From IMG/VR virus record IMGVR_UViG_3300045988_172415: a DNA stretch of 64,000 nucleotides; one strand, written 5' to 3'. Position 1 is the first letter of the stretch, and every line of letters begins with the position of its first letter. Under the pieces are notes generated by a model that had not been told where the DNA came from, did not search any database, and saw only the letters and a list, made by a program, of their open reading frames with translations. The DNA comes from a virus. The translations under genes and the position numbers were made by a program. Positions 2,496-47,357 of this stretch are shown in pieces.

Positions 2496-3331
2496 AGTAC
2501 ACCGCCGTCCTCATAGCCGACGGTGTACTTTCCTGCGGTACCGTGCAGTCCGCAGTTAATCTGCAATCCGTCCAAGATGACCATGCGGTGTGGGGAGAGT
2601 TGCACGTCTTCGCGTAGGTTTTCCAAACGCATGCCTGACGTCAGTTTTATTAACGTTTGACGGTAGGCTCCGTCCAGTTGGCTCCAATATTTGAGATGCG
2701 AGTCTTTCAACTGTCGGAATAGAAGGAGAGCATGAACGTATTGGCCTGTCCAATCCACTTCGTGCATGAGCCGTTCCAACCGGTTCAGTTGGATGGTCAC
2801 GTCTTCGGGATTGTTCGCTTGGAACAGTGGCCCGTACTCATCCAATGCCTCACGTAGTTCCTGCTGTCGCATATCCCGGATTGGGGTTCCTCCGAATTGC
2901 GGACTGTTGGCGAGCCATACTGCCAAATCCCATGTTTCAGCCGCGTTCGCGTCGATGTTCGGATACGCGCAGTCACGGAGCGTTGTCCAGCTGGCGCTTA
3001 CCTTGACGAGTCCTCGGATTCCGGACACGAAGTTCAGGATGGACAGGAACAGGAAGATGATTTTCCATCCTCCCGTCAGGGAGTTCGAATATGCGAGAAG
3101 CCATACCGCCACCAGTAGTCCGAGCGCGTACACCACGACCTGTGGGAGGACTCCCCTACGGAAGATGGTCTGCAAGACTGCTTCCCGGTCTCCGTTGGAG
3201 TATAGGCAGTTTTTGTTCACGGTGTTGTTCTGATATTCCAAGTATTCAGGCTTTCGACGCTTTGACGTATTTCTTTTTCTTGAATCGTTCATCGACCCGG
3301 ATGACCCAGCCGGTGTCGCTGGTTCCGGCAA
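2492..3331 (-). CDS. membrane protein (2–3 TM); start uncertain
   Basis: ORF with hydrophobic helices (VVVYALGLLVAVWLLAY, IIFLFLSILNFVSGI). Confidence 0.4.
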   Translation of the reverse strand: MPEPATPAGSSGSMNDSRKRNTSKRRKPEYLEYQNNTVNKNCLYSNGDREAVLQTIFRRGVLPQVVVYALGLLVAVWLLAYSNSLTGGWKIIFLFLSILNFVSGIRGLVKVSASWTTLRDCAYPNIDANAAETWDLAVWLANSPQFGGTPIRDMRQQELREALDEYGPLFQANNPEDVTIQLNRLERLMHEVDWTGQYVHALLLFRQLKDSHLKYWSQLDGAYRQTLIKLTSGMRLENLREDVQLSPHRMVILDGLQINCGLHGTAGKYTVGYEDGGVL

Positions 3332-4032: not shown

Positions 4033-4056
4033 GTTTTTCTCCTTGGCTGGCTTTTT

Positions 4057-4089
4057 CTGTTATTGTGTGAACGCTTCTAGTATAACATC
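4057..4089 (-). promoter_or_regulatory. copy of the conserved promoter/operator module ('TATACTAGAAGCGTTCACACAATAA' on the minus strand)
   Basis: Reverse-complement match to the repeated motif. Confidence 0.5.
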
Positions 4090-34770: not shown

Positions 34771-35676
34771 ATGGGAGGGGTTTTGGGAAAACATACGGCG
34801 AAACCGAAAGGCTTGGGAAATCGAGCCATAGCGGGACTTCTCTGCCTAATCCTATCCGCCCTGTCCGGAACCATCCCATTCATTCTCATGATTTCGAACA
34901 GCAGCCAATCCAACCGGTTGACCGACTCCCACGCGCAAGCCGTGGAAAACACTGACGTGAAACGAATCGCCCAAGAGTATGCGGACGCGCAAGCCTACAA
35001 TCAACGCCTATACGAGGAAGGCCAGCCCATTCTTGGTGAGGCGGAAGACCCTTGGACGGGCGTCAACAAGTCCGAAACGGACAACACGTATCGGAAGCAA
35101 CTATCCACCCCCAAGGATGGGGTCATGGCTACCATCAAATATCCACGCTTGGGCATCAACCTGCCCATCCGGCATGGCACGTCGCAAAATGTGTTGGCCG
35201 CTGGAGCTGGACACTTATACGGTTCCAGTCTCCCCGTCGGTGGCAAGAACACGCATACTGTCATATCCGCTCACACGGGTTTGGCCGACCAGCTCATGTT
35301 CGACAAGCTGCGAGGCTTCGGCAGTGAAGCCAAAAAGGGAGACGTCTTCTATTTGATAACCGCCGGACATATGCTCGCTTACAAGGTCACGGATATTAGT
35401 GTGGTAGACCCATCCGACTTTTCTAAACTGAAAATCGTCGCCGGAAAAGACCTCTCCACACTATTGACCTGCACGCCATACGGCATCAACAACAAGCGAC
35501 TCTTGGTGACCGGCACGCGCGCCAGCATGCCACACCCCGCGCCCAAACCCGAAAACGCGCCGAAAGACCACACGAACCAATGGCTCATGCTGTACGTCGG
35601 CGGCTTCTGGCTTGCGGTAATCATCATCACCATTCTCATCATCCGTAGAAAAAACCACGCAAAGAAGGAACACTAA
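34771..35676 (+). CDS. class C (pilus-specific) sortase
   Basis: N-terminal TM, catalytic 'HTGL' His, 'TLLTCTPYG' Cys motif, and the C-terminal TM anchor typical of class C sortases. Confidence 0.8.
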   Translation: MGGVLGKHTAKPKGLGNRAIAGLLCLILSALSGTIPFILMISNSSQSNRLTDSHAQAVENTDVKRIAQEYADAQAYNQRLYEEGQPILGEAEDPWTGVNKSETDNTYRKQLSTPKDGVMATIKYPRLGINLPIRHGTSQNVLAAGAGHLYGSSLPVGGKNTHTVISAHTGLADQLMFDKLRGFGSEAKKGDVFYLITAGHMLAYKVTDISVVDPSDFSKLKIVAGKDLSTLLTCTPYGINNKRLLVTGTRASMPHPAPKPENAPKDHTNQWLMLYVGGFWLAVIIITILIIRRKNHAKKEH

Positions 35677-38600
35677 TGGGTATTCTCAAAAAGCATGTGG
35701 CACATCCGGTAGCATTATTGGCCGCAATCGCCACACTGGCATCCGGCCTGACATGCATGACCAATCCGGTAGCCTCTCCAAAAGCGCATGCGGACGAGTT
35801 GAAACCTGCGTATGCTACTGCGAAAATCGTTAAGAAAGCCGACGGTACGGGGCATGGCACGAGTTCGCAAACGTTCGTGAATTCGAAGAACGGGTTCGCC
35901 ACGGGCGATGATTCCCCTACCGATGGCGTGGTCGCATCCGGTGATACGGTCGAATATTCATTGACGTTGAACTTCAACGCGGCGGGCAAGCGTACCATCA
36001 ACGTGAAGTTCGACTTGGACGACGCGCCGTATTTGCAGACTGCTGACGGTGGTGGCTTCTGCCAGCCGGGACAACTCGTCACCGCGAAGAAAAACAGTGA
36101 CGGCTCCTGCTCCTACACGGTTCCAGCCGGTGGCGTGGAAACCATGACCCAAACCTTCTATCTGAAAGCAAAAGACACGGGAGGCTTGGTCAAGCCGGGT
36201 CAGATTCCGAAAATCGTCGTCGCCCGCGAAGGTGGAACGTCAACCACGTATCGTACGGATGAGCTGACTGTAGTATCCGCTCCGGCGGCTGACTTGGTCA
36301 TTGACAATGGCGGCAATCCGGTGAAAGGCCAATACTCGTATGAGCATCGTACTTATTGGAGTCAGAACACCGACGCGACCGGCGATTTCACTATTCGTGC
36401 CGACGCGTTGACCTATCCGGGTTATTCGTCCACGAAGGGCGCGTCCACCAGCATCGATTGGACTACCAAAGTGGATATTTCCGACTTCCCGCAGAACACC
36501 GTGTGGACTGTAGGCGGTCAGCGGATTACCCGTAACAGTGATAAAGAACAGTATCTGACCGTATCCAGTGGCAAGAACGGTGCGGCGGCGACAATCAGCT
36601 ACAGGATTCCCGCCGGAACCGACGCGCTCAAAAACATGAAAGAAGGAGACGTCAAATATTACGATGTCCACCTTGTTCCCGACGAAACCGTGTTCAGCGT
36701 CAAAGACGATAACGGCGACGCACTGTTGAACATGGGCAAAGGTGGAGAACCCGGCTGGAACATTGGACGGGACAAGAGCACCTACAACAAGGATACGGGT
36801 GCCCGCGTCGGCTACCCGTACGCGAATAATGACTGGTCACGAGCCATCATCCAACGGCTCAAGCCGACTCCAGCTGGCAAGATTCCACTGTTCGGCAAAG
36901 GACTGCAACGTCCTAACACTGCGTCCAAGACCATGTTCGACAAGGAGAATCTGACGTTCGACGCCGCCGAAGGCAAAGCCGACATCTACCATTACTATTC
37001 CGACGGTTCCGGCGACACCGTGTCCCGTGGAACGCAAGTCAAAACCATTTTGGAAATGTATGCGGCGAACGTTACGGCGGACAAGCTTAAAAACACTACG
37101 CCGACCATGCAGGACGAGTGGGATAATACGCGCATGCGGTGGGATGGAAGCTTGGAAGTCACCCAGAACGGCGCTCCGGTTTCCGACTACAAAGTTCAAT
37201 GGGATGATAGCAAAGACAATTGGCATGACGGGGAACCATCCGACACAGACGCTCCGAACGTCAAGAAGATTCGGGTGACGTTCAACCCCGACACTTTGAC
37301 TTTGGGAAAGGGTGCGCCGAACGTTCAGGTCACGTTCAACACGCTCGCCATAGCCGACGTGTCCAAAGGCAATGTGGAAGCTTTGGATACGCTGACCGCA
37401 TGGCTTACCGAAGACGATAAGGCGAGCGTCACCAATTGGGTGTGGATTGCCAAGCCGGTAGACCCGACCACCAGTATCGACATCAGTCTAAAAGCCTACG
37501 ATGGTGAAGGCAATCAAGTGTATGCGAACAACAGTTCCAATCACCCGTCCGGAAGCGCAGTCGATTTGACTCCCGGCATGCGAGTGGATTATACGGTCAC
37601 GGAACAATTGCGCACCATTCTCCTGTCCAATACGAGCATGACGCCGACCATCACGGTGCCGAAACCGAAAGGCTTGTACAATCCGACCTGTGATGATTCG
37701 TTCTGGCAGATGAAAGTGGACGGGAATAATCTCGTGTTCACGCCACGTTCCGGCAAAGTCACGCCGGAAGTAGACCGTATGGGGTCGGCCACTTTGCCTG
37801 ACCTGCATTTCAGTGGCATCGTATCCAATCTCGCCACCGGGACTGTGACCGCCAGTGCGAATATGAGCGTGGACGTTGACGAGAACGGCGCATTGCAAGC
37901 CCAAACCATCAAAAGCAATACGCCCAGCGTCCCATTCCCTGTCTCCAATGCGGAAACCAACAGTGGCATCATGCGTGTGAAGACCACGAAGGCTGAAATC
38001 AGTGACCCGCTTACTTGGGAGTTCAACGTGTACGGCAAGGGCGGCGGACATACCGGCACCATGGATAGCATGCTACTGCTTCCTGCGAATGGTGATGAGA
38101 AGTACGTGCAGGACAAGCTGGTCGAATATGAGCGTGGATACAGCAACTATCATGGCTCCTACGAACTGACCCAGCCCGTCACGGTCAATATGGACAATTC
38201 GACCAGTACGACCGTCTACTATTCAACCACCACCGGAAAGAAGTCGGATAATCCGGCTGACTACGAGTGGAAGACATGGGATGAATTGTCCTCCATCGAG
38301 AAGAAGAACATCATCGCCATCCGACTGACCAGCACAGTCGTCGCGTCCGACGATAAACTGTCCTATTCGGCGGTGAACGGCGCCATCACGCTCACCCCAT
38401 CCGACAATGTGAAAGACGACAAGTACACGCTGTGGCTTGGCCGTAACTATTATTCCGACGCTTCCGACAAACCGGCGGGCAACCAGCCGTGGCCTGACGT
38501 GGCGAAGGTAGTGGCCGGTAGCATCAGCGGCACCGTCTGGTGGGATAAGGATGAGAACACGCTCATCGGTGACAGTGAAGAACGTATCGAAGGAGTGGAA

Positions 38601-41054
38601 GTCACCCTCGGCAAGCAGGATTCAAGCGGCGGCTGGCAGGCCGTCAAAACGGTGAAGACCGACAAGGACGGCTACTACGAGTTCAACCTGCTCCACTCCG
38701 GCACCTACCGTACTTCGGTGAAACGCAACACTGGCACCAGTACGGGTGATGGCGTGCAGACGCAGGTCAAAACCTACTATGGCAAGCTCGAAAACGTGAC
38801 GAACACGCGAAGCTGGTCGAACAAAATCAAGTCCAACGCGAAAGACACGTCCGACGACATCCACCTAGGCATCGGCGCAGACCAGAAGAACGTGGACTAC
38901 GGGTATGCGAAACCAGACCCGAAAGCCACCGTGGACAAAACCGTCACCGGCACCAGTTGCACCGATACGAAATGCGTCATCAACTGGGATGTCAAAGTAC
39001 AGAATTCTGGCACTAGTCGTTTTGATACTTCCAGTGTCGTTTCTGACCGTATGAGCGCCGACGTGCATGATGTTTCCGCTACCGCCGGTACGGTTTCTAT
39101 CGAGTCTGGTGGTGCGAAGCAGGTTGCGACGAGTGGCGACCATAAGTTTGTGTTGACGAACGAGGGCTTGTTGTATGCGTGGGGTAACAACCAGTATGGT
39201 CAATTAGGTTTCAAGCCTGACACGACGAATACCGCTACCCCAACGAACGTGAACAAGCCGACCATCGTCAACGGTAGTTGGCTGAAAGTCGCCGCCGGTG
39301 GCAAGCATTCCGCCGCCATCAGCACGGACGGCCACTTGTACACGACTGGTTGGAACGGTAAAGGCCAATTGGGTACGGGTGATACGGATAATCGTGACCA
39401 GTGGACTCTAGTCGCAGAAGATAAGACGTTTGTTGACGTGGCGTGCGGCAACCAGTTCACTGTGGCGATAGCAAGTGACGGCACCTTGTGGGTGGTCGGA
39501 AAAGTCAGTTCCACCTCGTATTCAACGTGGACGCAAATCCAGTCGGGTAAAACGTTCACGCAGGTCAGCGCCAGCACGTACAGGTGGGTCGCGTTGACGT
39601 CCTACGGCGGTTGTGTGGTGGACGGCGACGAGTTTTTCTCTATTGGTTTCACGCAAGTTGTCGCCTCATTCGGCAACGCCTACGGGTTGACTGACGCGGG
39701 TACAGTGATAGTGCTCGTCGACGGAGGTGATAGCGGTATCGGCCAGTCCAATGTGTCTAATCTGAGGTACATCACCCGTATCGGTGGCGGATACAACACT
39801 TTCTACGCCATCGACAAGAACCAACACTTGTGGGCGGCTGGCTGGAATGGTGACGGCCAATTAGCGAACGGTAAGACCGGTACAGGCAGGTATTGGACCA
39901 ACGGCAGTACGAGCGGCAACGCGGATATTGTTTCCACGCCAATCGATACGGGCATTACCGCATCCGACGTTGCGGGCGGCGACCGTGACGTGCTCATTGT
40001 CGGCAAGCAGGTCATGATTGCGGGCTTCGACCCGTATGGTGACGGCAAGACGGGTGGCGCACGTTCCACCGGTTTGAAGGGAATGGTCGTATCGTCCGAC
40101 CCGACCGCCGTACCGGTCGAACCGTTGAGCGAGTCCACGGAGAAGGGGTTGACGACCCGCACGTACAATCTGCCGTATGCGATTGAGTCGGGCGGCTATG
40201 TCATCTACCATTTCACTGGCACCGTTGACCGTGAAACTGCGGATACTACCAAGTGGTCTCCAACTGAGAAAGACGAGTGGGTCAAGAAGAATACGAAGAC
40301 CATTCTCAACCAAGCATGGTTCACCTCCGAACACACGCCATACTCAGGCACGCCACATGCAAGCGGCAAAACCAAGCCGGACCCTCCGAACGCATCCAAA
40401 CTGGATACGAACACGAATGACGTGACCGGCAATCCGACATGCCGCACCGACACCGACTATACGGAGGAAGGACGCCAACACTGGTTCAGCACGTCCGATG
40501 AGGACTCCTGCGACCAAGTCGGCACCATCATCACACCAACCACCACCGCGAAGAAACTCGGTTCCATCAGCGGCCTGTATTGGGAGGATACCAACAAGAA
40601 CGGCATTCAAGATGAAGGTGAGAACACGCATTTCGCCGGTCAGACGGTCATTCTGACTGACGAGAACGGCAAACAGTTGGCAACCACCAAGACCGACAAG
40701 GATGGCAAGTACATTTTCGAACGTCTGGACGCGAACGGCAACAAATACCGTATCCAATTCACCAAAGTGAACCACCGGGACTTCACCACGCCGGATGTGG
40801 GAGACAAGACTCCTGCGACGGATGGAAGCTCCACTGATTCGGATGCTTACACGGATGAAGCCAACAAGCTGACCATCACCCTCACCCAAGATGCTCCAAC
40901 CAAGGAGCATGTGGATGCGGGTGTCCTGCCTGAAACATGGTTGGCGACCATGCCGCACACGGGCATGGGATTGCTGTTGCCGCTCCTCATGCTCGTCAGC
41001 ATCAGCGGACTCGTCGCGGCAATCATCCTCCTACGAAAGAAGGAAGAACAGTGA
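35676..41054 (+). CDS. giant cell-wall-anchored adhesin (putative pilus tip/ancillary adhesin) with RCC1-repeat β-propeller and SdrD-B/CnaB-like domains
   Basis: 1,792 aa. Signal peptide. RCC1 repeats ('LYAWGNNQYGQLG', 'LYTTGWNGKGQLGTGD', 'LWAAGWNGDGQLANG'). Two SdrD-B-like modules ('SGTVWWDKDENTLIGD...DKDGYYEF', 'SGLYWEDTNKNGIQDEGE...DKDGKYIF'). C-terminal 'MPHTG' followed by TM and 'RKKEEQ'. Confidence 0.7.
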   Translation: MGILKKHVAHPVALLAAIATLASGLTCMTNPVASPKAHADELKPAYATAKIVKKADGTGHGTSSQTFVNSKNGFATGDDSPTDGVVASGDTVEYSLTLNFNAAGKRTINVKFDLDDAPYLQTADGGGFCQPGQLVTAKKNSDGSCSYTVPAGGVETMTQTFYLKAKDTGGLVKPGQIPKIVVAREGGTSTTYRTDELTVVSAPAADLVIDNGGNPVKGQYSYEHRTYWSQNTDATGDFTIRADALTYPGYSSTKGASTSIDWTTKVDISDFPQNTVWTVGGQRITRNSDKEQYLTVSSGKNGAAATISYRIPAGTDALKNMKEGDVKYYDVHLVPDETVFSVKDDNGDALLNMGKGGEPGWNIGRDKSTYNKDTGARVGYPYANNDWSRAIIQRLKPTPAGKIPLFGKGLQRPNTASKTMFDKENLTFDAAEGKADIYHYYSDGSGDTVSRGTQVKTILEMYAANVTADKLKNTTPTMQDEWDNTRMRWDGSLEVTQNGAPVSDYKVQWDDSKDNWHDGEPSDTDAPNVKKIRVTFNPDTLTLGKGAPNVQVTFNTLAIADVSKGNVEALDTLTAWLTEDDKASVTNWVWIAKPVDPTTSIDISLKAYDGEGNQVYANNSSNHPSGSAVDLTPGMRVDYTVTEQLRTILLSNTSMTPTITVPKPKGLYNPTCDDSFWQMKVDGNNLVFTPRSGKVTPEVDRMGSATLPDLHFSGIVSNLATGTVTASANMSVDVDENGALQAQTIKSNTPSVPFPVSNAETNSGIMRVKTTKAEISDPLTWEFNVYGKGGGHTGTMDSMLLLPANGDEKYVQDKLVEYERGYSNYHGSYELTQPVTVNMDNSTSTTVYYSTTTGKKSDNPADYEWKTWDELSSIEKKNIIAIRLTSTVVASDDKLSYSAVNGAITLTPSDNVKDDKYTLWLGRNYYSDASDKPAGNQPWPDVAKVVAGSISGTVWWDKDENTLIGDSEERIEGVEVTLGKQDSSGGWQAVKTVKTDKDGYYEFNLLHSGTYRTSVKRNTGTSTGDGVQTQVKTYYGKLENVTNTRSWSNKIKSNAKDTSDDIHLGIGADQKNVDYGYAKPDPKATVDKTVTGTSCTDTKCVINWDVKVQNSGTSRFDTSSVVSDRMSADVHDVSATAGTVSIESGGAKQVATSGDHKFVLTNEGLLYAWGNNQYGQLGFKPDTTNTATPTNVNKPTIVNGSWLKVAAGGKHSAAISTDGHLYTTGWNGKGQLGTGDTDNRDQWTLVAEDKTFVDVACGNQFTVAIASDGTLWVVGKVSSTSYSTWTQIQSGKTFTQVSASTYRWVALTSYGGCVVDGDEFFSIGFTQVVASFGNAYGLTDAGTVIVLVDGGDSGIGQSNVSNLRYITRIGGGYNTFYAIDKNQHLWAAGWNGDGQLANGKTGTGRYWTNGSTSGNADIVSTPIDTGITASDVAGGDRDVLIVGKQVMIAGFDPYGDGKTGGARSTGLKGMVVSSDPTAVPVEPLSESTEKGLTTRTYNLPYAIESGGYVIYHFTGTVDRETADTTKWSPTEKDEWVKKNTKTILNQAWFTSEHTPYSGTPHASGKTKPDPPNASKLDTNTNDVTGNPTCRTDTDYTEEGRQHWFSTSDEDSCDQVGTIITPTTTAKKLGSISGLYWEDTNKNGIQDEGENTHFAGQTVILTDENGKQLATTKTDKDGKYIFERLDANGNKYRIQFTKVNHRDFTTPDVGDKTPATDGSSTDSDAYTDEANKLTITLTQDAPTKEHVDAGVLPETWLATMPHTGMGLLLPLLMLVSISGLVAAIILLRKKEEQ

Positions 41055-41065
41055 AAGGAACAAGA

Positions 41066-41998
41066 ATGGGCGAACACGCCACACAATCACACGGGAGCCG
41101 TCACATGGTTCGGCGGCTCCTCGCCACCCTCGCCATCATGAGCGCGGTCTGCGGCGGCTTCCTCACCGGTAGTGCAATAGCCGCCGAACCAGCCAAATGC
41201 AATACTGGCGTGGACAAGGTTTGCTACGCGGGCTATAACGCGGCGGGATTGAAACAGATTGCCGACGATTTAAGCGAGAAAGGCAAAGGAAGCACATACT
41301 ATGCCGCAATGGAAAAGAACCTGACCGACGGGGTCAAAGGCACGCTCACCCTATCAGACGGCTCGAACCTCCCATTCCGACTCATCGGCATCCTCCACGA
41401 CGACAAAGCCGACGGAAGTGGACGAAAAGCAGGATTGACGTTCATGGCTTGGAACGCGTTACCGAAAGCGTATGCCATGAACAATAGTCACACCAATAAT
41501 GGCGGCTGGCGTGACAGTCTTCTCCGCAATCAGATGAACAATGGTGAAATCTGGAACCAATTCCCAACCGACTTCCAAAACAACGTCACAACCGTGCTGA
41601 AACAAACCAACAACATGGCCTACGGAAGCACAGTCGGTTCAAGCGCGTCAGCCACGGCAGACAAAGTATGGCTCGTCTCCTACCGTGAACTCGTACCAAC
41701 CTTATACGATGGTTGGAAGACCTCTGGTGGTTTCCAAGCGTTGAATCAGGAGGGAAGCCAATACGAGTATTTCCACGGTAAGGTGACAAATAACTGGTCG
41801 GGTAATAGCATTCTCTCCGGCATCTACAAGACCGTTTCCGGTTCCGCTCCTCTTGGTGCTTACGGCAGCTTTTGGTGGGAGCGTTCGCCCGACCCGGACC
41901 TCTACGGCCATTTCCTCCTAGTGAGCTCGTACGGCGACCCCAGCTACAGCGACCGTGCCGACTATCGCTACTCCGTTGTCCCCGCTTTCTCCTTCTAA
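41066..41998 (+). CDS. DGR target protein: secreted protein with a C-terminal variable region
   Basis: Start at 41066 with RBS GAAAGGA; the track ORF begins at 40937 inside the adhesin gene. Sec signal peptide (MVRRLLATLAIMSAVCGGFLTGSAIAAEP). The last ~50 codons are a VR homologous to the downstream TR. Confidence 0.7.
   Translation: MGEHATQSHGSRHMVRRLLATLAIMSAVCGGFLTGSAIAAEPAKCNTGVDKVCYAGYNAAGLKQIADDLSEKGKGSTYYAAMEKNLTDGVKGTLTLSDGSNLPFRLIGILHDDKADGSGRKAGLTFMAWNALPKAYAMNNSHTNNGGWRDSLLRNQMNNGEIWNQFPTDFQNNVTTVLKQTNNMAYGSTVGSSASATADKVWLVSYRELVPTLYDGWKTSGGFQALNQEGSQYEYFHGKVTNNWSGNSILSGIYKTVSGSAPLGAYGSFWWERSPDPDLYGHFLLVSSYGDPSYSDRADYRYSVVPAFSF
41831..41984 (+). repeat. DGR variable repeat (VR) at the 3' end of the target gene
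   Basis: A 154-bp match to TR 42629–42782. All 24 mismatches fall at positions where TR has adenine. The 3' ~19 bp are identical to TR (IMH-like GC-rich end 'CGCTACTCCGTTGTCCCCG'). Confidence 0.85.
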
Positions 41999-42011
41999 TC
42001 CCCAATCCTTG

Positions 42012-42036
42012 GGTGGTGGGGTTCATCCCCACCACC
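42012..42036 (+). other. GC-rich hairpin just downstream of the VR/target stop
   Basis: Perfect 10-bp inverted repeat GGTGGTGGGG-TTCAT-CCCCACCACC, 14 nt after the stop. Confidence 0.6.
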
Positions 42037-42070
42037 CCTCCAAACTCAAATCTCACACAAAAGGAGTCCT

Positions 42071-42586
42071 ATGACGGTTCCCGCAAGCAAACGTACAAAA
42101 GCCAAAAGCGAATATGCGAATCAGGCCAGAATCGTGCTCTTGGCTACCAGAAATCTGTTCCGCAAATGGCCTAAAAGCCGTAACTGCATTGAAACCGTGC
42201 ATGTCATGCATATCGCCTACGAAATGTACTCCTCCGCCTACAGTGCCGACATCATTTATGCAAGCACTGTAGAAGAGCATGAGATGAAACTGCAACTGTT
42301 GTGCAAGGCCCAAGGCATGCTGAACTCACTCTCCGGTCTTGTGGACGATTGGATGGAGTTTCCTCCACGGGAAAAAGACTTGGAAGCCTACAGGAAATAT
42401 CCGGAAGGCGACCCCAGATACAATCCCGTCGTCAAGGAGAAGAAATTCGTGAACTATGCGGGAACCCTCTACAAGGCGATGGGCGTGTTCACCGGAGCCG
42501 TCAAGTATGAGCGAGACCAGTTGAAGAAAGCTAAAAACGCCGAGTCGAAAACGAACACTATAATGGATACTCGGGCGCAAGCCTAA
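42071..42586 (+). CDS. avd: accessory variability determinant (Avd)-like protein
   Basis: 171-aa basic helical protein with RBS AAGGAG, sitting between the VR gene and TR, which is the canonical DGR Avd position. It is larger than typical ~120–130-aa Avd proteins. Confidence 0.45.
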   Translation: MTVPASKRTKAKSEYANQARIVLLATRNLFRKWPKSRNCIETVHVMHIAYEMYSSAYSADIIYASTVEEHEMKLQLLCKAQGMLNSLSGLVDDWMEFPPREKDLEAYRKYPEGDPRYNPVVKEKKFVNYAGTLYKAMGVFTGAVKYERDQLKKAKNAESKTNTIMDTRAQA

Positions 42587-42628
42587 AATATAATTGAACA
42601 AAATCGGCCATATCCAAACTATGGTGAC

Positions 42629-42782
42629 ACCGTTTCCGGTTCCACTCCTCTTGGTGCTAACAACAACAATTGGTGGGAGCGTTCGCCCAACCCGAACAAC
42701 AACAACAATTTCCTCCAAGTGAACTCGAACGGCGACCCCAGCTACAACAACAATGCCAACAATCGCTACTCCGTTGTCCCCG
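42629..42782 (+). repeat. DGR template repeat (TR)
   Basis: A non-coding copy of the VR, rich in AAC/AAT triplets. Every difference from VR is at a TR adenine. A spacer of ~190 bp separates it from the RT start. Confidence 0.85.
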
Positions 42783-42976
42783 ATTCCTCTTACCAAAAAC
42801 TAACATCAGATAGGCCAGTAGCCCAATGGGTGAAAGCCTCCCGAAGGGGAAGGGGATATGGTCGAATGCGCGGCCCCTCGAAAAATGGGTTGCGTGTGAA
42901 ATAGGTTGAGGGAGATATTAAGACTGTCGGGAACGACGGATACTCGCCCCTTAAGCTGGGCGTCCAACATCATTGC

Positions 42977-44206
42977 ATGTCTTGGGTTGTTGCCGACGAC
43001 CTGCCCTCAACCATTCTTTTCTCTTTCCCTAGTGAAGGAAGCATTAAAATCGTGAATGCGAGTCAAAGACGTAGAAGACGCCAACGCAGACTGCAACAAC
43101 GCTCGGATGATAAGTACAGGAAGCTCCACCGTTACATCGACTTCCAACAAACATTCGGATTCGACGCGCTCTACCAAGCCGCAAGAAAATGCAAACGCGG
43201 CGTCACATGGAAAAACACAGTGTTGAACTTCGACAATAGGCGTGCCGTCAACTGTTGGAAACTCGCCCAAGAATTAGAGGACGGCACATACAAGAAGAGA
43301 GCGCCAATCCGATTCGACATTCCCGAACGAGGCAAACTCCGCCACATCAGCGCGGTATCCTTCCGAGACCGGGTGGTGCAACGCGCCTTATGCGACAACA
43401 GTCTCGTCCCCATCGTGGAAAGCCAACTGATATACGATAATGCGGCAAGCCTACCGAAACGTGGAACATCGTTCGCCCGAAAACGGTTCGAACTACACTA
43501 TAAGCGGGCTTTGGGCAAATGGGAGCATCCGTATGCTGTCATCTTCGACTGTTCCAACTATTTCGGAAGTATCAGCTCCCAACGAGCGTTCGATATGATT
43601 TCCACCCTGTACCGGAGCATCGCCCGCACCGGACGGGAGAAGCAGGATGTGGAACGGATTCTAACCGTATTGAGAATCTTCGTATTGGACGAACCTCACT
43701 TGGGTTTAGGCAATCAGACAAGCCAAACCATGGCTATCTGGTATTTGAACAAGGTTGACCACTGGTGCATGTCACAAGGATTCTACGGACGGTATATGGA
43801 TGATGCCTACTGTTTCTGCAAGAATCGTGAACAGGCCGAACGTGTGCTGGCCGGTTACGAGCGGCATGTCAATCAATTGGGATTGCGGTTGAACAAGCGC
43901 AAGACCCGCATAGTGGACTGTCGCACCGGTCAACTCACATTCCTGAAACGCGTATACAGCGTACAGGATGACGGCAGTATTCTTATCCGCATGCACCATA
44001 AGGCGTTGCGTGCAAGCCGACGGCATGCGCGTAACCTTATCCGCTCATATGATGGCGTGCATGTGGGATTGCGGACAGTTCAGGATTCTTGGACGAGCCA
44101 TGAGAGCACACTGTCGGGTCTAACTCACCGTCGTGGACTGTGCGCTCGGGAGAAAGCGTGGTATCGGAGGCATTGTGAAATGCGGAAGCTGGCTTTTCAC
44201 CCGTGA
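42977..44206 (+). CDS. DGR reverse transcriptase
   Basis: RT motifs 'ISAVSFRDRVVQRAL', 'LGLGNQTSQTMAIWYL' (the DGR-specific GNxTSQ in place of the group-II QGxxSP) and 'YGRYMDDAYCF' (YMDD). The start codon is uncertain. Confidence 0.85.
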   Translation: MSWVVADDLPSTILFSFPSEGSIKIVNASQRRRRRQRRLQQRSDDKYRKLHRYIDFQQTFGFDALYQAARKCKRGVTWKNTVLNFDNRRAVNCWKLAQELEDGTYKKRAPIRFDIPERGKLRHISAVSFRDRVVQRALCDNSLVPIVESQLIYDNAASLPKRGTSFARKRFELHYKRALGKWEHPYAVIFDCSNYFGSISSQRAFDMISTLYRSIARTGREKQDVERILTVLRIFVLDEPHLGLGNQTSQTMAIWYLNKVDHWCMSQGFYGRYMDDAYCFCKNREQAERVLAGYERHVNQLGLRLNKRKTRIVDCRTGQLTFLKRVYSVQDDGSILIRMHHKALRASRRHARNLIRSYDGVHVGLRTVQDSWTSHESTLSGLTHRRGLCAREKAWYRRHCEMRKLAFHP

Positions 44207-44475
44207 TTTCCGGACTTTCCAGATTGGTGGAGGGGTGTAATCTGCTGGAAGCGGTGGCGCAGAATCTTCCGCTTCCTCAATCGTTTGGATGAGATTTCGT
44301 GAGGCTTGGATTGTATCGTATTTTACTCGGCATGCTTGTCGGCTAGTTTTTCTTCCCAGCTTGGTGTTACACTGGGTTTACTTGCATTTCCTTCCTCGGG
44401 ACTTCGCCCATGTGGGGCTTTAGAGGTTATCAGCGCATTGGTCAGAGTATGCCGTTTGAGTGAAAGGAAACTGTC

Positions 44476-45087
44476 ATGGCAGGTTTTGATGATATTACGG
44501 TCACTCGCAGTGATGGCCGTTTGAAGGTTAAGGCTCCATATAATCCGTTGTTCGCCCGTCGCTCCCGCGCGTTGGGTGGAACGTTTGATGACAAGTTGAA
44601 GACTTGGACGTTCGATATGCGTGTGGAAAGGCTGGTGTTCGAAGCTTTAGACAAATACTTCTGGTGGCATAAGGGCGTGGACGCTGAAAAGCGTGTCACA
44701 GTCACCATCGACCCCTACGACTACTTGTACGCGTACTCCAAGCAGGATAGCGACATTATCTGGTTCGCTGGTCGAATCCTAGTCGAAAAATATCAGCCCG
44801 ACCGTCCACCGCGCATGATGCCGAATGTGGCTCTCGTGGATGGCATGTGGCCTAAAACCGGCTTGTACACGGGGTTGAATCTCAGTCCCGACAAACTCCG
44901 ATTATTGGTATGGGATGTTCCAACCAGTTTTCTGGAACGACTGTCGTCCGGCAAGTATGAGTTGTCTGAGCCGGATGGTGACACGTTGACTGCGGTTGAC
45001 GTTCGTATTCAGGCTATGGAGGAACGGTTAGGCCGGTTGAGGGAACTCCGAACCCGACTCGCCTCTAATAGTGAGGATGGTGAATGA
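44476..45087 (+). CDS. hypothetical protein (203 aa)
   Basis: ORF with RBS GAAAGGAAA; its end overlaps the next gene (ATGA). Confidence 0.4.
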   Translation: MAGFDDITVTRSDGRLKVKAPYNPLFARRSRALGGTFDDKLKTWTFDMRVERLVFEALDKYFWWHKGVDAEKRVTVTIDPYDYLYAYSKQDSDIIWFAGRILVEKYQPDRPPRMMPNVALVDGMWPKTGLYTGLNLSPDKLRLLVWDVPTSFLERLSSGKYELSEPDGDTLTAVDVRIQAMEERLGRLRELRTRLASNSEDGE

Positions 45088-46091
45088 TGCTCTCCGTGCC
45101 GATTAATGGTCAAGTCCAGTCGCGTCTCATTCCGCCCACGTTCGTGGAAGACAACATCAGCGACATGTTCAAGGCTGTGGACGCCGGACACAATATCGTC
45201 GTGACGGCAGTGGACGAGTACGGTAATCGAACCAGTATTACCACGCCGGATAATGTGAATCATGACATGCTGGGGCGTCCTCTCGAATTCGCGTCCCATC
45301 CCGTACTGATGCGGAATGTGCGCCGTTGGATGGTTTGGCTGTTGCAAGCGCAATACTGCAAGGATTACAAGTGGGATACGAACAGGCTTGGAGGTTGGAT
45401 GGAAGTGTTGGGTTTACCAGCCGACCTTGATATTCCCGTAACGGAGGAACATTTACGCGTGTTGAAGCCTGTGTTTAACAAGGATGATGCCGACCCGTAT
45501 CGGCTTGTCGCACGATACGACAAGCAACATTATGCTTCATGCACCCTCAGCACTCTCATACGGTTAGCCGAACAAACCACGCCAAACTATGCCCTGAACA
45601 ATCCCACCCGCTGGTGCCAAACCGACCGATACCGCAAACTCAGCATCCAACCCAATCCGAAAGAAAACTGGGACGGAATGGACAGGGTACGCGACTGTTG
45701 GAGCGGATGCGAATGGGCATACCCCGCATTGGAACGCTACTATAATCCGATTCGACTATTACGCGACGAATACCGGCGGGGAGGACTACCTGAAACCTTC
45801 CACTATCCAATACACACGACAAAAGGCGAATACCGGTTGGCGAAAGGACAAATCAGCCCCCACGCAACAATCCTCCTCAACGGCAAGCCCGTAGGACTCA
45901 TGTTCAGCGACGATTGCGAGGAACCATTCACCGACCGGATACCACCCGAATGGTGCGCCACACCCTTACCGGAAAACTATAAGACCACGCCACTCAACAG
46001 AAACATTCCCGTAAACGGCGAATTCAAACCATCATTCCAGCAAGCCATGCTGGGATTCGTGGAATGGTATGAGAAAACGCACAAGGGATAG
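45084..46091 (+). CDS. hypothetical protein (335 aa, Trp/Cys-rich)
   Basis: ORF translationally coupled to the upstream gene. Confidence 0.4.
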   Translation: MMLSVPINGQVQSRLIPPTFVEDNISDMFKAVDAGHNIVVTAVDEYGNRTSITTPDNVNHDMLGRPLEFASHPVLMRNVRRWMVWLLQAQYCKDYKWDTNRLGGWMEVLGLPADLDIPVTEEHLRVLKPVFNKDDADPYRLVARYDKQHYASCTLSTLIRLAEQTTPNYALNNPTRWCQTDRYRKLSIQPNPKENWDGMDRVRDCWSGCEWAYPALERYYNPIRLLRDEYRRGGLPETFHYPIHTTKGEYRLAKGQISPHATILLNGKPVGLMFSDDCEEPFTDRIPPEWCATPLPENYKTTPLNRNIPVNGEFKPSFQQAMLGFVEWYEKTHKG

Positions 46092-46199
46092 CAAAAGAGG
46101 AAAGCCCCCTTAGTTGAGGGGCTTTCTGGTAAATGTCAAATGGTGGCAAGCTTGAATTCTTCCAGCTTGTCCATGCTAAACCGCCCAGAACAACAAAAC

Positions 46200-47357
46200 C
46201 TAGTTCTCCGAGCGTTCGCTGATATTCTCCCGCATCTGCAAATAAGCCCCATGCTCACGCAAGTAATCCCGCAAATACGGCATTTTGAAAGCGACTTCAC
46301 CGTAACCGACCGGCTCAATCAAATCGTTCTCAATCAGCTTGGTTCTATACACGTTGGCGAACTGTGGCGAACGGTTCAACCGACGGGCGATTTCACCTGT
46401 ATTCGACACCGTATCATCCACCGACATGGCAAGCAGATAGTTCACCGCATGGGATGGCAAGCCATGCAATGCTGGGGCGTGAACCATATCCCCTAGTTTG
46501 GCTTGGGCTTTTTCGATACCCTTGACCGCGTCCTCCTCGGTCACTTGATTCACATGGCCGTTGGTTTCGGAAACCCTCCAAGCCCAATAACCCACCAGCT
46601 GAATCATGAACGGATAACCATGAGTGGCATTGGTCAACCGTATCAAGGTTTCCATTCCGGCTTTCTTTTCCCCGCTGAACGATTCCTCGAATGCTTTCAG
46701 AACCTTCTCCGTGGGCACGGAACCTAAATGGTATCGTTCTGCCCGTTGGAGGAATGTGATGGCGTTGTCTGACAGCACGTCGTTTACGGCTGAGGGTAGT
46801 CCTGCGAAAATAAAAGCTATATTCCGTCCCTCTCGTATGAGATGTTGCACGGCGGTAGACATTGCTCTGATTTCATCCATGGAACCGGATTGCACTTCGT
46901 CCAAGGTGATGAGGATTCCTTGCCTGTTTTCGTTCATTTTGTCTAGACGCTTGCCGACTGCTTGGCGCAATGTCAAGGAACGTTCCTCTTTGCGTTCGAG
47001 TTCGATTCTTCCCAGACTCAGTTCGAGGTTTCCGGTGTTTCCCGTCAGTCCGACACTGGGCATGTCGTATGCAGATATGCGGGTGGTATCTTTGCCGGTA
47101 AGTGAGTCCACGAGTCTTTGTGTAAAACCGCTGTCAGCGCTTTCGTTGTAGACTTGCCATCCTTGTTTTTGAGCGTGTGTTCCCAATGTGTCCAGCATTA
47201 CGGTTTTGCCGACTCCTCTGGCTCCGGTGAGAAACATCAGTCGTCCGGGGCTTCCTACTCCGTCTTTTAGGGCGTAGTCGAAGTCTTCGATGATTTCTTC
47301 TCGTCCAACAAGAATTGGGGGTATGCGTCCGGCGGTTGGTTTGAATGGGTTGGTCAT
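46200..47357 (-). CDS. AAA-type ATP-binding protein (archaeal-ATPase/DUF234-like)
   Basis: N-terminal 'LVGREEIIEDFDYAL' followed by Walker A 'LTGARGVGKTVML' and Walker B 'LITLDEVQ'. A winged-helix-like C-terminus. RBS AAGGAG. Confidence 0.55.
   Translation of the reverse strand: MTNPFKPTAGRIPPILVGREEIIEDFDYALKDGVGSPGRLMFLTGARGVGKTVMLDTLGTHAQKQGWQVYNESADSGFTQRLVDSLTGKDTTRISAYDMPSVGLTGNTGNLELSLGRIELERKEERSLTLRQAVGKRLDKMNENRQGILITLDEVQSGSMDEIRAMSTAVQHLIREGRNIAFIFAGLPSAVNDVLSDNAITFLQRAERYHLGSVPTEKVLKAFEESFSGEKKAGMETLIRLTNATHGYPFMIQLVGYWAWRVSETNGHVNQVTEEDAVKGIEKAQAKLGDMVHAPALHGLPSHAVNYLLAMSVDDTVSNTGEIARRLNRSPQFANVYRTKLIENDLIEPVGYGEVAFKMPYLRDYLREHGAYLQMRENISERSEN

Follow-up and report, generated by a model that had tools for sequence, protein, structure and literature searches.

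A GC-rich hairpin downstream of the variable repeat in a phage DGR: a candidate target-site element with a pyrimidine-rich loop

Organization of the DGR and its phage

The viral DNA analysed here (IMG/VR record IMGVR_UViG_3300045988_172415; the whole stretch of 64,000 nucleotides is referred to as the window) contains a complete phage DGR, with the target gene and its variable repeat (VR), a helical accessory protein, the template repeat (TR) and the reverse transcriptase (RT) in this order. Within it sits a perfect hairpin. The features of the locus, all on the plus strand, are the following.

40937-41998 (+): DGR target gene, ORF as listed, with a C-terminal DUF6273 domain
41831-41998 (+): VR, at the 3′ end of the target gene, with 24 A-to-N mismatches at 41846-41963
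41964-41998 (+): IMH-like 3′ end of the VR, delimited by TR/VR comparison
41999-42010 (+): spacer of 12 nt (TCCCCAATCCTT) from the target stop and the end of VR-TR homology to the hairpin
42011-42037 (+): perfect inverted repeat able to form a hairpin or cruciform, from folding, a hairpin scan and family comparison
42071-42586 (+): accessory gene in the Avd position, 171 aa, assigned by position and a predicted helical bundle
42629-42796 (+): TR, with an IMH*-like end at 42762-42796 and no hairpin after it
42977-44206 (+): DGR reverse transcriptase, 409 aa (RVT_1, phrog_1423), with LGNQTSQ and YMDD motifs

The VR and TR are direct repeats of 168 nt. Between positions 41846 and 41963 they differ at 24 sites, and the TR base is an A at all 24. 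The 3′ end of the VR is IMH-like: 41964-41984 is identical to the TR over 21 nt (65% GC, ending in GTCCCCG), and the segment that follows, 41985-41998, departs from the TR copy at five of its 14 nt (CTTTCTCCTTCTAA in the VR, ATTCCTCTTACCAA in the TR). The arrangement is like that of IMH and IMH* in BPP-1 (PMC3240598). These five differences between IMH and IMH* are fixed in the phage family, in 15/15 VRs that can be aligned without gaps and in 8/8 TR variants. The VR at 41831-41998 is single, no further VR being found in the window.

The match to DUF6273, a domain described as resembling the C-type lectin fold (PMC10743442), covers the C-terminal half of the target protein. The listed ORF overlaps by 118 nt the end of a 1792-aa ORF (35676-41054), and the true start of the target is probably the in-frame ATG at 41066, which lies past the stop of this giant upstream ORF and is preceded by AAAGGAA. 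The 1792-aa product carries RCC1 repeats together with SdrD B-like and CarboxypepD_reg domains; the synteny of a giant protein and a DUF6273 target is also present in a relative with 66% RT identity (L111).

Encoded in the Avd position is a protein with no Pfam or NCBIfam match and no similarity to Bbp7/Avd by BLASTP; sequence searches, the PDB included, gave only close homologues. Its homologues among 5.8 billion proteins number only six, all of them close. The AF2 model (pLDDT of 75) comprises four long helices, with the best Foldseek matches observed for 2gsc and 2rld (weak E-values of 0.03-0.6, TM(target) of 0.75-0.79), which are four-helix-bundle proteins labelled as S23 / 23S rRNA IVS family, to which Avd belongs. 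Avd-like proteins of this RT clade may escape HMM-based DGR annotation.

The RT is 30% identical to Brt of phage BPP-1, its LGNQTSQ and YMDD motifs aligning to IGSLTSQ and YMDD of Brt. In an alignment of 17 relatives, the motifs LGLGNQTSQ and YMDD are invariant. Phages with RTs 98-100% identical to this one carry 17 distinct VRs and eight slightly different TRs; among the 15 VRs aligning without gaps, 39/47 TR-adenine positions are variable, as are 25/121 other positions. Such variation at TR adenines among nearly identical phages shows that the DGR is active and diversifying in nature. The locus combines adenine-specific TR/VR differences, an RT with [LIV]GxxxSQ and YxDD motifs, an IMH/IMH* pair and ongoing diversification, the features by which a DGR is recognized.

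RTs 98-100% identical are found on IMG/VR contigs of 90-217 kb, and the DGR is carried by a large phage. A DnaB-like helicase gene lies near the DGR. Searches for tRNA genes and for Rfam families at the gathering threshold gave no hits in the 64 kb, and the Rfam matches around the DGR were at chance level only; blastn of 40900-44300 against 50,697 GenBank phages gave no match, and GC skew gave no usable signal for the direction of the target relative to replication. A minus-strand hairpin at 46100-46126, GAAAGCCCC-TCAACTAAG-GGGGCTTTC with the T-tract CTCTTTTGCT behind it, has the look of a canonical terminator and is the only clear case of this kind in the window; it separates two convergent genes, 45084-46091 (+) and 46200-47357 (-).

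A perfect hairpin between the target and accessory genes

The hairpin, GGGTGGTGGGG / TTCAT / CCCCACCACCC, starts 12 nt past the target stop codon TAA (41996-41998), at which VR-TR homology also ends, and is composed of a left arm (42011-42021), a loop (42022-42026) and a right arm (42027-42037). All 11 pairs of the stem (11/11) are Watson-Crick pairs, and nine of them are G-C. An initial annotation of this DNA had placed a 10-bp perfect stem at 42012-42036, 14 nt downstream of the VR. The perfect repeat, the GC-rich stem and the TTCAT loop described there are retained here; the extent is revised to 11 bp, the outermost G-C pair having been missed, and the spacer to a measured 12 nt. This distance is within the range of 4-34 bp downstream of the VR given for phage DGRs. 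The gap between the target stop and the start of the avd-like gene is 72 nt and contains the hairpin, which ends 34 nt before the avd-like gene starts; no promoter-like site was found between the hairpin and the avd-like gene.

The stable structure expected from the initial annotation is recovered on folding. Folded as DNA, the 91-nt context reaches -15.4 kcal/mol (z = -4.65, with 0/200 shuffles as stable), and folded as RNA it reaches -28.1 kcal/mol (z = -4.98). On the two DNA strands the hairpin gives -14.7 and -15.0 kcal/mol, with z about -4.7 for both. The experimentally validated hairpin of BPP-1, folded in the same way, gives -12.2 kcal/mol and is less stable than that at 42011-42037. 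An RNA hairpin formed by the same sequence in the target mRNA is predicted to be very stable, at -25 to -28 kcal/mol. Nothing similar forms 3′ of the TR (-6.5 kcal/mol, z = +1.43; 189/200 shuffles fold equally well), in agreement with the earlier statement that the TR copy lacks the hairpin.

Among perfect hairpins of at least 11 bp (loop of 3-8 nt), that at 42011-42037 is the only one in the 64 kb window, for which dinucleotide shuffles predict 0.27. The sequence of its arm has no second copy in the window at 0 mismatches. No T-tract follows the hairpin on either strand, the adjoining sequences being CTCCAAACTC on the plus strand and AAGGATTGGG on the minus strand. It therefore lacks the arrangement of an intrinsic terminator, a GC-rich hairpin and then a T/U tract, and is not listed by a terminator scan of the window. 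The possibility that the inverted repeat is a generic terminator recurring at unrelated gene ends, raised in the initial annotation as an objection, is not borne out.

Hairpins in close relatives and across the RT clade

The stop-to-avd intergenic region is available in nine distinct versions, from relatives with RT identities of 98-100%, 80% (L108-110) and 66% (L111). A 17-nt core, GTGGGG-TTCAT-CCCCAC, is unchanged in eight of the nine, despite divergence of the spacer and of the sequence after the hairpin. The outer part of the 5′ arm differs by lineage (GGGTGGTGGGG, (T)GGTGGGTGGGG, GGGGGTGGGG and GGGGGGTGGGG), and the 3′ arm is altered to match in each. In the family alignment 96.6% of cells are paired, compared with 63-74% in slid controls. 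At two stem pairs, G-C is replaced by T-A through matching substitutions in the two arms, and the covariation score was reached by 0/500 shuffles; as the compensatory changes amount to about 2-3 independent events in the family sample, the covariation is supportive rather than conclusive for a hairpin. The distance from the stop codon to the loop is 23-25 nt across the relatives, with a spacer of varying sequence.

Stems in the family are mostly 10-12 bp long; in one version (L013) the stem is 8 bp and the loop 6 nt long. This variant, GGGGTGGG-GTTCAT-CCCACCCC at about 4040-4070 of its contig, has one G fewer in the 5′ arm and one C fewer in the 3′ arm than the nearest variant, reflecting either paired deletions or homopolymer assembly errors. 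Some 2.4 kb past the DGR RT of a relative with 80% RT identity (L108, 4650-6083) is a gene for an OrfB_IS605 / Cas12f1-like TNB (TnpB-type) protein.

At greater distance, a relative with 47-48% RT identity (L343) retains the IMH motif CCCCGCTTTC, its TR having CCCCGATCTC. Its hairpin is bulged, with 7+7 bp (GCCTGCG-CT-GGCCCAC [CTGCGC] GTGGGCC-CGCAGGC); it is likewise GC-rich, but longer than and different from that at 42011-42037, and lies about 44 nt after the stop, outside the 4-34 bp range. This case fits conservation of structure rather than of sequence. Three assemblies of the contig have three different VRs. RT relatives at 39-51% identity (L112-L116, L347 and L349) have no detectable TR/VR on contigs that are mostly short or end near the RT, so that L343 alone represents this range of identity.

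An exact scan of viral contigs with the core GTGGGGTTCATCCCCAC gave 25 matches, 16 in the same phage family and nine unrelated. The same scan of 596 Gb of genome contigs gave at least 120 matches in unrelated taxa; by our own estimate this is about as frequent as chance, and these matches are therefore uninformative. In four Phycisphaerae / Tepidisphaeraceae MAGs (L155, L191, L214 and L215) the core occurs two or three times within 40-660 nt, on both strands, which suggests that these planctomycete copies are a local repeat family unrelated to DGRs.

The wider clade was surveyed in IMG/VR through loci with RTs 29-38% identical to that of the window, comprising 51 independent loci, with a TR/VR detector and a perfect-hairpin finder written for this analysis. 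Defined as strong were hairpins with a score of at least 18 (3 per G-C and 2 per A-T pair) within -10 to +70 of the detected VR end. A strong perfect hairpin follows the VR in 71% of the 51 loci and the TR in 0/51, and random windows taken within these loci contain one in 3.4% of cases, an enrichment of about 20-fold for VR-linked hairpins over random windows in this clade. The recurrence of hairpins after the VRs of homologous DGRs, which the initial annotation had named as a check, is thus observed, alongside the compensatory changes in close relatives.

Between the loci of the clade the stem sequences are unrelated, and what persists is GC-richness, perfect pairing and loop type. At least five T within the 10 nt after the hairpin are found for 4/34 distinct clade hairpins. 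The stems are pure Watson-Crick; a G-T pair is present at the first break in 7/34, as expected by chance, and pairing resumes beyond it in one case only, although this wobble test has little power to tell RNA-level from DNA-level structure. Two DGRs with two targets each (L083 and L103) have the hairpin CCGCCCCGC-TAGAY-GCGGGGCGG after both VRs, at the same distance and with different sequence beyond it. The VR ends are at 3147 and 8054 in L083 and at 3146 and 7809 in L103, with the hairpin about 32-33 nt past the detected VR-TR homology; one VR is upstream of avd and the other several kb past the RT. Since the hairpin is present on both VRs and only one of them is upstream of avd, the hairpin travels or is duplicated with the VR, not with the 5′ region of avd.

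The 29 distinct hairpins of this clade (loci L032-L107) have loops of 5 nt (16), 6 nt (10) and 4 nt (3), with a base composition on the sense strand of 79 T, 30 C, 27 G and 16 A. The pattern YTYRT fits about half of these loops (CTTGT, TTTAT, CTCGT and 6-mers ending in these), and also TTCAT of the window; GRNA loops are found in 0/29. The pipeline was also applied, as a positive control, to 80 loci found with Brt (L263-L342; RTs 42-100% identical to Brt). BPP-1's own GCGGGGCC-GAAA-GGCCCCGC was recovered, and 17/19 distinct hairpins have GRNA loops, on stems of 6-9 bp. In a rough NJ tree of the RTs the two loop classes separate cleanly, except for two purine loops (GCAA and GACAAA) in the pyrimidine clade; as the two samples come from different queries, the split of the RT tree is by construction, and the informative comparison is 17/19 against 0/29 GRNA loops. 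A description of a pyrimidine-rich loop class of 5-6 nt was not found in the literature searched, the coverage of which is incomplete.

A candidate target-site hairpin and its alternatives

In phage BPP-1, efficient homing requires the 8-bp inverted repeat that follows the VR and that adopts a hairpin or cruciform structure when the DNA is supercoiled (PMC3240598). The stem acts through its structure and not its sequence, and the 4-nt GAAA loop is dependent on both sequence and size: replacing GAAA with CTTT, or adding 2 nt, abolishes function (PMC3240598). According to Guo et al. (2011, PMC3240598), the hairpins shared by phage DGRs combine a GC stem of 7-10 bp with a GRNA loop and are placed at a distance of 4-34 bp from the VR. 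Extrusion and a requirement in retrohoming are documented for BPP-1 and, according to Wu et al., for Legionella (PMC5758913), and in a 2026 reconstitution in E. coli deletion of the stem-loop impaired retrohoming (PMC12875486). The proposal made there is that the cDNA pairs with single-stranded target on the lagging-strand template and that the stem-loop prolongs the open state (PMC12875486).

The window resembles BPP-1 in gene order (target, avd, TR and RT) and in the location of the hairpin just 3′ of the VR/IMH and target stop, between the target gene and avd. In both, the stem is GC-rich and perfect, no such hairpin follows the TR, and the stem varies with pairing kept around a conserved loop. 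Unlike BPP-1, in which an 8-bp stem lies at the stop codon and carries a 4-nt GAAA loop that is purine-rich in sense, the window has an 11-bp stem, a 12-nt spacer and a 5-nt loop, TTCAT, that is pyrimidine-rich on the sense strand. The RTs of the two phages are only 30% identical, and their accessory proteins have no detectable sequence similarity. Given the inactivity of CTTT and of loops enlarged by 2 nt in BPP-1, a TTCAT loop implies that recognition here cannot be identical.

Other systems delimit the class to which the hairpin belongs. Among 372 DGRs, only 34% have GC-rich repeats (Wu et al. 2018, PMC5758913), which means that DGR function does not demand a hairpin; the window hairpin fits the broad definition of that set, a GC-rich repeat after the IMH, mostly without terminator features. 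The predictor of MyDGR accepts only stems of 7-10 bp with a 4-nt GRNA loop at 4-34 bp from the VR (PMC6602519), and would miss the window hairpin and all 29 distinct clade hairpins. The hairpin at 42011-42037 is outside this narrow BPP-1-type rule, with a 5-nt TTCAT loop (ATGAA in antisense) in place of 4-nt GRNA and with 11 rather than 7-10 bp; inside the broad definition and outside the narrow one, it is a lineage variant of a known cis-element. Hairpins of Nanoarchaeota DGRs have GRA trinucleotide loops (Paul et al. 2015, PMC4372165) and are an earlier example of DGR target hairpins with loops that are highly constrained and specific to a lineage, although these purine-rich 3-nt loops are inside the target gene, whereas the pyrimidine-rich 5-nt loop of the window is intergenic. 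An analogy has also been drawn by Guo et al. with the stem-loops and intrinsic terminators targeted by group IIC introns (PMC3240598). As there, a retroelement would recognize a GC-rich stem-loop beside its insertion or homing site; unlike there, the window hairpin has no U-tract, and DGR homing replaces a homologous repeat with no insertion of an intron.

The inverted repeat is likely to be the target-site hairpin or cruciform of this DGR, enhancing the homing of mutagenized cDNA into the VR, to which we assign a probability of roughly 0.78. The reading draws on the structure itself, the lack of a comparable hairpin elsewhere in the window, its placement after the VR and not the TR, the compensatory changes with which it is conserved, the activity of the DGR and the clade-wide occurrence of VR hairpins. 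The homing-cruciform function suggested in the initial annotation gains support by comparison, the position, GC stem and VR-specificity being as in BPP-1 (PMC3240598), and by this analogy we infer that the hairpin would form in vivo and boost retrohoming. The avd-like/TR/RT operon would give rise to adenine-mutagenized cDNA of the TR, and this cDNA would take the place of the VR with which the tail-fibre-like target gene ends. The recipient would be marked by the IMH-like end of the VR, with its five fixed differences from the TR copy. The hairpin, 12 nt further on, would extrude in supercoiled or single-stranded DNA, for example on the lagging-strand template, and would make cDNA homing more efficient, whether by holding the target open or through recognition of the conserved loop.

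An element acting at the RNA level in the target transcript is improbable, and would in any case not be mutually exclusive with a role in homing. The hairpin would serve as a terminator or attenuator lacking a U-tract, or as a 3′ stabilizer, either separating expression of the target from that of the avd-TR-RT operon or protecting the mRNA 3′ end, with only a secondary link to homing. Such functions were considered by Wu et al. for DGR inverted repeats generally, yet terminator evidence was obtained for only a minority of DGRs (PMC5758913). The location in the 72-nt gap from target stop to avd-like start and the very stable RNA fold (-28.1 kcal/mol, z = -4.98) would suit a transcript element; however, the T-tract seen at the terminator 46100-46126 is absent here from both strands, and only 4/34 clade hairpins have a T-rich tail. 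Also counting against it are stems that are pure Watson-Crick, with G-T pairs at chance level (7/34, a weak test), a loop that is constant in the family on a stem that is variable, and hairpins that never follow TRs and that, in two-target DGRs, follow both VRs.

Less probable still is a palindromic operator, bound by a dimeric protein that regulates avd-TR-RT, in which the paired changes would keep dyad symmetry. The arms are contiguous 11-bp G/C runs only 5 nt apart, and from the hairpin to avd there is no promoter-like site, although the symmetry is perfect, the avd-like start is only 34 nt downstream, and compensatory changes alone cannot separate a palindrome from a hairpin. In two-target DGRs an identical hairpin is also found after the remote VR, which has no avd downstream, and stem sequences are unrelated across loci while GC-richness, pairing and loop type persist. 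Finally, an inverted repeat could arise by chance in an intergenic region rich in G/C runs, shuffled windows having on average 0.27 perfect hairpins of at least 11 bp and the 17-nt core being about as frequent in 596 Gb of genomes as chance would predict. The position is, however, exactly that expected for a DGR target hairpin, the repeat is conserved down to 66% RT identity with compensatory changes despite diverging flanks, and in related DGRs hairpins follow 71% of VRs against 3.4% of random windows; conservation and clade enrichment effectively refute a chance origin.

For the target-site hairpin, the loop classes raise the tentative idea that DGR target hairpins have a lineage-specific loop code co-evolving with the RT, accessory-protein and RNA machinery. 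The code might read as 4-nt GRNA, purine-rich in sense, in Brt-like systems and as 5-6 nt, pyrimidine-rich in sense, in the clade of the window, a proposal that we consider rather less likely than its opposite. A hairpin at the target site is expected, and mild surprise comes only from the pentaloop, which is pyrimidine-rich and specific to the clade; the window otherwise holds a complete and active phage DGR diversifying a C-type-lectin-like tail protein, reassuringly ordinary.

Only two cis-elements of a DGR target are known, and the hairpin, as one of them, bears on how the cDNA finds and replaces the VR (PMC12875486). RT lineages that are very distant from one another retain a hairpin linked to the VR but with a different, equally constrained loop, which argues that the loop is read by something lineage-specific, and TTCAT against GAAA is a natural contrast that gives a handle on what reads it. 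Annotation rules built on 4-nt GRNA loops and 7-10 bp stems miss a whole class, and such misses may partly explain why inverted repeats are reported for only about a third of DGRs. If there is a loop code, the loop would be more than a passive device for opening DNA: it would be a specificity determinant read by each system's own machinery, possibly on the opposite strand from that in BPP-1, and orthogonal DGRs would be addressable to different targets by the identity of the loop.
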